DNA from: Escherichia coli
GTDB taxonomy: Bacteria > Pseudomonadota > Gammaproteobacteria > Enterobacterales > Enterobacteriaceae
Direction: 5' to 3' (one strand)
DNA length: 64,000 nucleotides
NCBI RefSeq assembly: GCF_030384885.1
Contig: NZ_CP128613.1
Shown here in pieces: positions 62,589 to 63,243 of the stretch. Both the position numbers and the translations under genes were made by a program. Below the pieces are notes generated by a model. That model searched no databases. It was not told the origin of the DNA and worked only from the letters and a program-made list of their open reading frames with translations. How positions within the stretch are numbered: the first letter of the stretch is position 1; every line of letters starts with the position of its first letter.

Positions 62589-62855
62589 ATGGACATTAAT
62601 AACAAAGCCCGCATTCACTGGGCATGCCGCCGTGGTATGCGCGAACTCGATATTTCAATCATGCCGTTTTTCGAACATGAGTACGACAGCTTAAGCGATG
62701 ACGAAAAACGAATCTTTATTCGTCTGCTGGAGTGTGACGATCCGGACCTGTTTAACTGGCTGATGAATCACGGTAAACCGGCCGATGCAGAGCTGGAAAT
62801 GATGGTCCGACTCATCCAGACACGGAACCGGGAACGTGGTCCTGTGGCAATCTGA
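62589..62855 (+). CDS. sdhE: FAD assembly factor SdhE (CptB antitoxin)
   Basis: 88-aa [40 protein letters not shown]; RGxxE motif. Confidence 0.9.
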
Positions 62856-63243
62856 TCTGCGCGTCTCCTGGCGCGCGCAGTGGCTTTCCTTGCTGATTCA
62901 TGGGCTGGTTGCCGCTGTTATTTTACTCATGCCCTGGCCGCTCAGTTACACCCCGTTATGGATGGTGTTACTTTCGCTGGTGGTGTTTGATTGCGTTCGC
63001 AGCCAGCGACGCATTAATGCTCGCCAGGGAGAAATTCGCCTGTTGATGGACGGGCGTTTGCGTTGGCAAGGGCAGGAGTGGAGCATCGTCAAAGCGCCGT
63101 GGATGATTAAGAGCGGCATGATGCTGCGTTTACGTTCTGACAGCGGTAAACGGCAACATTTATGGCTGGCAGCCGACAGCATGGACGAAGCCGAATGGCG
63201 GGATTTACGGCGGATTTTGTTGCAACAAGAGACGCAAAGATAA
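62836..63243 (+). CDS. ygfX: Inner membrane protein YgfX (CptA toxin)
   Basis: 135-aa ORF starting at GTG 62836, overlapping the sdhE 3' end by 20 nt; two predicted TM helices. Confidence 0.85.

Follow-up and report, generated by a model that had tools for sequence, protein, structure and literature searches.

The window analysed here is a stretch of 64,000 nucleotides of Escherichia coli DNA. At positions 62589–63243 the ORF listing places two open reading frames on the same strand, coding for proteins of 88 and 135 amino acids, the second lying in frame +1 relative to the first (Table 1). RefSeq record NZ_CP027579.1, 100% identical over the 1001 nt queried, gives equivalent coordinates for both genes, sdhE and ygfX, under the product names 'FAD assembly factor SdhE' and 'protein YgfX'; the same arrangement is annotated in K-12 MG1655 (b2897/b2896). 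The initial annotation had read the locus as an 88-aa SdhE followed by a 135-aa YgfX whose GTG start lies 20 nt inside the 3' end of sdhE, and on this the ORF listing, RefSeq and K-12 agree. The locus is a real, annotated pair of genes and not two ORFs that happen to lie together.

Table 1. Features of the sdhE–ygfX locus (positions in the window).
Feature	Coordinates	Strand	Remarks
Candidate -10 hexamer TACAAT	62548..62553	+	read from the sequence; -35 poor
Shine-Dalgarno-like AGGAAG for sdhE	62580..62585	+	AGGA core 5 nt before the ATG
sdhE	62589..62855	+	ATG start, 88 aa; stop TGA 62853–62855
Conserved 16-nt block ACACGGAACCGGGAAC	62820..62835	+	inside sdhE, directly 5' of the ygfX GTG
Dual-coding overlap GTGGTCCTGTGGCAATCTGA, 20 nt	62836..62855	+	encodes the SdhE C-terminus RGPVAI-stop and the YgfX N-terminus MVLWQSD
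ygfX (cptA)	62836..63243	+	GTG start, 135 aa
Hairpin in the 39-nt gap between convergent ygfX and fldB	63247..63276		-17.4 kcal/mol, z = -1.8

The window and K-12 share the two genes, their order and lengths, the GTG start and the 20-nt overlap, as well as the neighbours ygfZ, fldB and xerD. Over the 655 nt of the pair they differ at 16 positions, none of which is inside the overlap. At the protein level SdhE is 100% identical and YgfX is one residue off (134/135 identical; S103 in the window, G103 in K-12). This comparison, which had been proposed as a check, establishes the homology and, together with the Pfam and NCBIfam profile matches given below, upholds the two gene identities. The genes, their overlap and both of the functions proposed for them are already known from standard annotation and from the literature.

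SdhE matches the Pfam family Sdh5 (PF03937; 5e-26, 90.8 bits for a cutoff of 27) and, over residues 1–88 of 88, the NCBIfam SdhE equivalog NF008130 (198.4 bits for a cutoff of 120). Its residues 15–19 read RGMRE and fit the RGxxE motif, which is needed for flavinylation according to McNeil & Fineran 2013, as cited in PMC8621075. By the full-length equivalog match and by this motif the protein is like the SdhE/Sdh5/SDHAF2 family (PF03937), from which no difference was detected in the SdhE of the window. Structures of essentially the same protein have been solved alone (1X6I), with SdhA (6C12) and with FrdA (6B58), and the E. coli ygfY mutant is viable, loses its SDH activity and no longer grows on succinate (PMC5293155). 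From the identity with K-12, the 6C12 and 6B58 structures and this mutant phenotype we infer that SdhE promotes the covalent attachment of FAD to SdhA and FrdA. The ATG start of sdhE is supported by the N-terminal peptide MDINNKAR, by Ribo-RET and by INRI in the supplement of a 2026 N-terminomics study (PMC13245402); the Shine-Dalgarno-like sequence in front of it pairs with the anti-SD at -4.3 kcal/mol and its position is conserved across species. SdhE homologues have been reported in alpha-, beta- and gamma-proteobacteria and in eukaryotes, and outside the gamma-proteobacteria most members of the SdhE/Sdh5/SDHAF2 family are without a ygfX partner (PMC5042078).

YgfX matches the Pfam family Cpta_toxin (PF07254; 1e-49, 168.5 bits for a cutoff of 27.3), its residues 2–131 being aligned with profile positions 1–132 of 133. 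Hydropathy delineates two hydrophobic segments, at about 16–32 and 40–54, with Arg-rich flanks. The AlphaFold2 model (pLDDT 93.8) comprises a strand (2–8), two helices (12–31 and 36–62), a β-domain (65–112) and a last helix (118–134). The hydropathy and the modelled helices agree with the earlier description of YgfX as a membrane protein, and the predicted layout would be an N-terminal strand, two membrane helices and a cytoplasmic β-domain carrying a C-terminal helix. The full-length profile match, the two N-terminal membrane helices and the position directly 3' of sdhE place the protein in the YgfX/CptA family (PF07254).

We found no solved structure of any YgfX relative, and a Foldseek search of the PDB with the YgfX model gave no significant match; the fold-comparison list was noisy, with many helical matches. 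The cytoplasmic domain of the model may be PH-like. A direct interaction between SdhE and YgfX has been reported (PMC5042078, PMC3985639), and we put forward as a hypothesis that a membrane-anchored PH-like protein-binding domain would fit it. In this view YgfX would act at the membrane as a partner of SdhE.

The pair is a core component of the species. The 1001-nt query around it finds a match in 5425 of the 5426 complete E. coli genomes, with a median of one per genome. Of the 5426 places matched, one sits in a plasmid-labelled record. In the RefSeq record the neighbours are trhA, ygfZ, fldB and xerD. In the window, in 80/80 Enterobacteriaceae loci and in 6/6 distant loci ygfX is directly downstream of sdhE on the same strand. 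At the six distant loci, at which YgfX is 29–59% identical and ygfX always starts with GTG, the gene next to sdhE is ygfZ in four cases and the gene after ygfX is fldB in four, with an xerD-like integrase gene beyond fldB in three.

Identity to window positions 62400–63400 is at least 99% in only 14 of the 5425 genomes, the rest being at 95–99%; at this locus the window thus represents a minority E. coli lineage.

The overlap itself is very strongly conserved. In 80/80 Enterobacteriaceae loci it reads GTGGTCC[T/A]GTGGCA[A/C]TCTGA, i.e. with the GTG and the TGA 20 nt later, and in an alignment of 79 sequences (78 Enterobacteriaceae loci plus the window) 17 of the 20 positions never vary. Within it the wobble base of sdhE is the second codon position of ygfX, and the wobble base of ygfX is the first codon position of sdhE. 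Because every base is thus a first or second codon position in one of the frames, the 20 nt are evolutionarily frozen. Among E. coli genomes a 46-nt junction sequence finds a match of at least 95% identity in 5420/5426, and the single difference from K-12 within these 46 nt falls outside the overlap.

Four of the six distant relatives keep the 20-nt overlap. In a fifth the homologous start codon is lost (the site reads GCG) and a GTG two codons upstream is used, which gives an overlap of 26 nt. The sixth (L083) has a shortened SdhE and no overlap, the two genes being arranged as TAA, one base, GTG. The overlap is therefore not strictly required.

Two observations on individual sequences belong here. 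In Enterobacter sp. EA-1 (locus L061; CP025776.1, upstream of 2501) the sdhE match covers only residues 27–88, with no start codon where it is expected and with ygfX intact; this could be a 5' disruption of sdhE or an assembly error. Six proteins from metagenome assemblies (P0003, P0004, P0006, P0007, P0012 and P0021; 166–217 aa) carry both Pfam domains. We rejected them as natural SdhE–YgfX fusions or products of programmed frameshifting, and regard them as frameshift or assembly errors, because the point at which the frames join differs each time and nearly all are singletons.

Conservation extends upstream of the overlap. The five sdhE wobble sites of the 16-nt block that precedes the GTG (62822–62834) have a majority-base fraction of 0.90–1.00 in the 79 sequences, with a mean of 0.95. 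By comparison, the mean is 0.66 for the other 77 wobble sites of sdhE, 12% of which reach 0.90, and 0.64 for the 129 wobble sites of ygfX outside the overlap; over both genes 12–13% of such sites reach 0.90. The block is thus under an extra constraint, beyond the coding needs of SdhE and not explained by dual coding, and the simplest reading would be that of a ygfX initiation region within sdhE. Judged from the alignment, these data suggest that the 16 nt are the ygfX translation-initiation region, which is the most likely cause of the constraint. The block also contains two CGG Arg codons (62823–62831) whose third-position G is kept in 79/79 and 75/79 species. CGG is a rare codon in E. coli.

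The Shine-Dalgarno match of ygfX is weak and badly spaced. Pairing of the ygfX region with the anti-SD reaches at best -4.3 kcal/mol, with a GGGA only 2 nt from the GTG, and 26% of the windows in the operon pair as strongly or more so. The RNA fold of the junction is no more stable than that of shuffled sequence (z = -0.18), conservation at the junction is too high for a covariation test, and no Rfam family turned up inside sdhE–ygfX when 59000–64000 was scanned.

As a discovery the locus matters little, and the value added by this analysis is modest. It consists in comparative evidence that from E. coli down to about 30% YgfX identity ygfX keeps both its GTG start and its 20-nt overlap with sdhE, in the extra conserved block, which points to selection on ygfX initiation, and in the genomic behaviour of the pair, taken up below with the toxin interpretation.

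Taken as a whole, positions 62589–63243 are very probably the chromosomal E. coli sdhE–ygfX operon, a conserved two-gene housekeeping unit in which ygfX would be translated from the overlapping GTG and partly coupled to sdhE. In the mechanism that we propose, ribosomes would start ygfX at GTG 62836, in the +1 frame and 17 nt before the sdhE stop codon. Because the start is a GTG and the Shine-Dalgarno match is weak and poorly spaced, YgfX would be expressed at a low level, at least partly coupled to ribosomes translating sdhE or terminating on it. The product would be a small inner-membrane protein, with an N-terminal β-strand, a two-helix hairpin and a cytoplasmic β-sheet domain, reported to bind SdhE.

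The initial annotation took the overlap to imply translational coupling, a step that is an inference, though one with which the strong conservation of the overlap and of the 16-nt block is consistent. The coupling taken alone is plausible, and on the features of the junction we would put its chances at about even. It also fits a start that is a GTG and a Shine-Dalgarno match that is weak. Like translationally coupled overlapping pairs, sdhE–ygfX has a same-strand overlap, with ygfX starting inside sdhE, and a conserved junction; the ribosome-binding site of ygfX looks weak by its Shine-Dalgarno match. It differs from them in that coupling is here putative and in the length of the overlap, 20 nt, the common coupling overlaps being shorter, of 1 or 4 nt. 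This length, beyond what is typical of termination–reinitiation, speaks for the main alternative, independent low-level initiation: ygfX would start by itself from the internal region and the overlap would be a frozen by-product of dual coding with no coupling function. The conservation of synonymous sites in the 16-nt block is what is expected of a self-sufficient ribosome-binding region, and the loss of the overlap in L083 also fits. Against this, a weak, badly spaced Shine-Dalgarno sequence combined with a GTG makes an efficient independent start look unlikely, and the overlap stays at exactly 20 nt even where YgfX is only 29–50% identical. We therefore regard independent initiation as a serious contender, somewhat less probable than not, and keep partial coupling as the preferred reading.

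A more specific proposal, which we consider rather unlikely as it stands, is that the 36-nt junction (the 16-nt block plus the overlap, largely invariant in Enterobacteriaceae) acts as a translational control element setting a low YgfX:SdhE ratio, and that YgfX is no toxin but a membrane-anchored PH-like adaptor docking SdhE at the inner membrane near SDH/FRD. If true, it would resolve the controversy between the toxin and the assembly-factor interpretations of the pair.

The toxin interpretation is unlikely. On this view sdhE–ygfX is a true type IV toxin–antitoxin module, with CptB as antitoxin and CptA as toxin, in which YgfX blocks the polymerisation of FtsZ and MreB, SdhE counteracts it at the target and the overlap keeps the antitoxin in excess. 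It originates from Masuda et al. 2012 in E. coli, as cited in PMC8621075 and PMC3985639. A CptBA-like system has since been reported in Acinetobacter (PMC8132199), the Pfam family bears the name 'Cpta_toxin', and the layout, a small gene overlapping a small downstream gene, is like that of many toxin–antitoxin operons. Against it, in Serratia the Fineran group detected no toxin–antitoxin phenotype and did see SdhE and YgfX interact (PMC3985639). Such binding conflicts with the definition of type IV, because the toxin and antitoxin of that type do not bind each other. In Shewanella growth was not restored by co-expression, and deleting both genes had the same effect as deleting ygfY alone (PMC8621075). 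The viability of the E. coli ygfY mutant, with its SDH defect (PMC5293155), also speaks against the toxin–antitoxin reading, as does the contrast between the widespread SdhE homologues (PMC5042078) and YgfX-like proteins, which form only 135 clusters among the 1.84 billion cluster representatives searched. The initial annotation was accurate in its wording 'has been described as', since descriptions both as a toxin–antitoxin-like module and as an SDH assembly factor are found in the literature. The toxin–antitoxin claim itself is contested: a single E. coli study stands behind it, with a report in Acinetobacter and a failure to reproduce it in both Serratia and Shewanella.

The genomic behaviour of the pair points the same way. 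Toxin–antitoxin loci are typically mobile and patchy, whereas sdhE–ygfX is a single-copy core pair in 5425/5426 E. coli genomes and keeps its neighbours across the Enterobacteriaceae and in more distant relatives; it does not display the accessory, patchy, mobile or multicopy distribution that is a typical hallmark, not a strict definition, of such loci. The defining type IV system of E. coli is CbeA–CbtA (YeeU–YeeV). It is carried by cryptic prophages, and its presence varies. In contrast, sdhE–ygfX is core, syntenic and single-copy, SdhE has an independent and well-established role in enzyme assembly, and SdhE–YgfX binding is reported. What the two have in common is a small two-gene, same-strand module and a toxin reported to act on FtsZ and MreB (PMC8621075, PMC3985639). 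In a population survey the prevalence of the toxin family was at least 80% in all the sequence types studied (PMC10790755), with which the single-copy, syntenic core behaviour agrees. For automated toxin–antitoxin surveys this behaviour is a reason not to count sdhE–ygfX among the typical modules.

Several indirect lines of evidence bear on the position of the ygfX start. A TGA at 62800 closes the ygfX frame on its 5' side; from 62803 on it is open, and GTG 62836 is the first ATG, GTG or TTG in it. Each of the 80 Enterobacteriaceae species sampled has a GTG at the corresponding site. In 26 of these the frame is open further upstream, to an ATG or TTG that is non-conserved and lineage-specific, and that is unused in the annotated 135-aa proteins; at the distant loci the amino acids encoded upstream of the GTG are not conserved. 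The N-terminus that begins at the GTG has in 35 relatives (20–57% identity) the consensus MVxWxCxLRxS, S11 being nearly invariant. Residues 2–11 are kept in relatives down to about 30% identity, and the Pfam Cpta_toxin profile begins at residue 2. In the parts of the INRI-seq and TRAINSPOTTER supplements that were searched we found no entry for the ygfX start; the latter does list sdhE. Since it is the first start in frame, since the N-terminus is conserved and modelled as a β-strand, and since a membrane helix would be lost otherwise, GTG 62836 is a well-supported candidate for the true ygfX start.

A start at a downstream ATG, M32 (62929) or M43 (62962), with no overlap and an N-terminus that is an annotation artefact, has in its favour that only a minority of E. 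coli genes start with GTG; it is hardly credible, since it would delete the first membrane helix and the high-confidence N-terminal β-strand out of a stretch (residues 2–31) conserved as protein in the 35 relatives, since just after the overlap the ygfX wobble sites vary with first and second codon positions conserved, i.e. a coding pattern, and since the GTG is invariant in 80/80 species. Such a start without overlap, one of the two outcomes that would have overturned the initial annotation, is thus disfavoured.

Control elements around the operon are less clear. An intergenic block at about 62514–62558 has a conservation of 0.73–0.82 in 79 Enterobacteriaceae species, for about 0.5 in its flanks. 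A consensus promoter scan called no promoter; by its sequence the TACAAT hexamer inside this block might tentatively be an element of the sdhE–ygfX promoter. On the other side, more than half of the 79 species lack the hairpin between ygfX and fldB (gap fraction 0.55–0.63), and it was not called by a terminator scan, whose only two matches were intragenic and at chance level. It may work as a terminator, and then chiefly that of fldB, since the T-rich tract comes after it when read on the minus strand.

Further upstream, between trhA and ygfZ (61177–61370), the window carries two REP-type repeat elements. An exact 34-nt direct repeat lies there at 61177–61210 and 61296–61329, and the Rfam family naRNA4 (RF02564) matches 61178–61255 on the minus strand with 69.8 bits, above the gathering score of 59.5.
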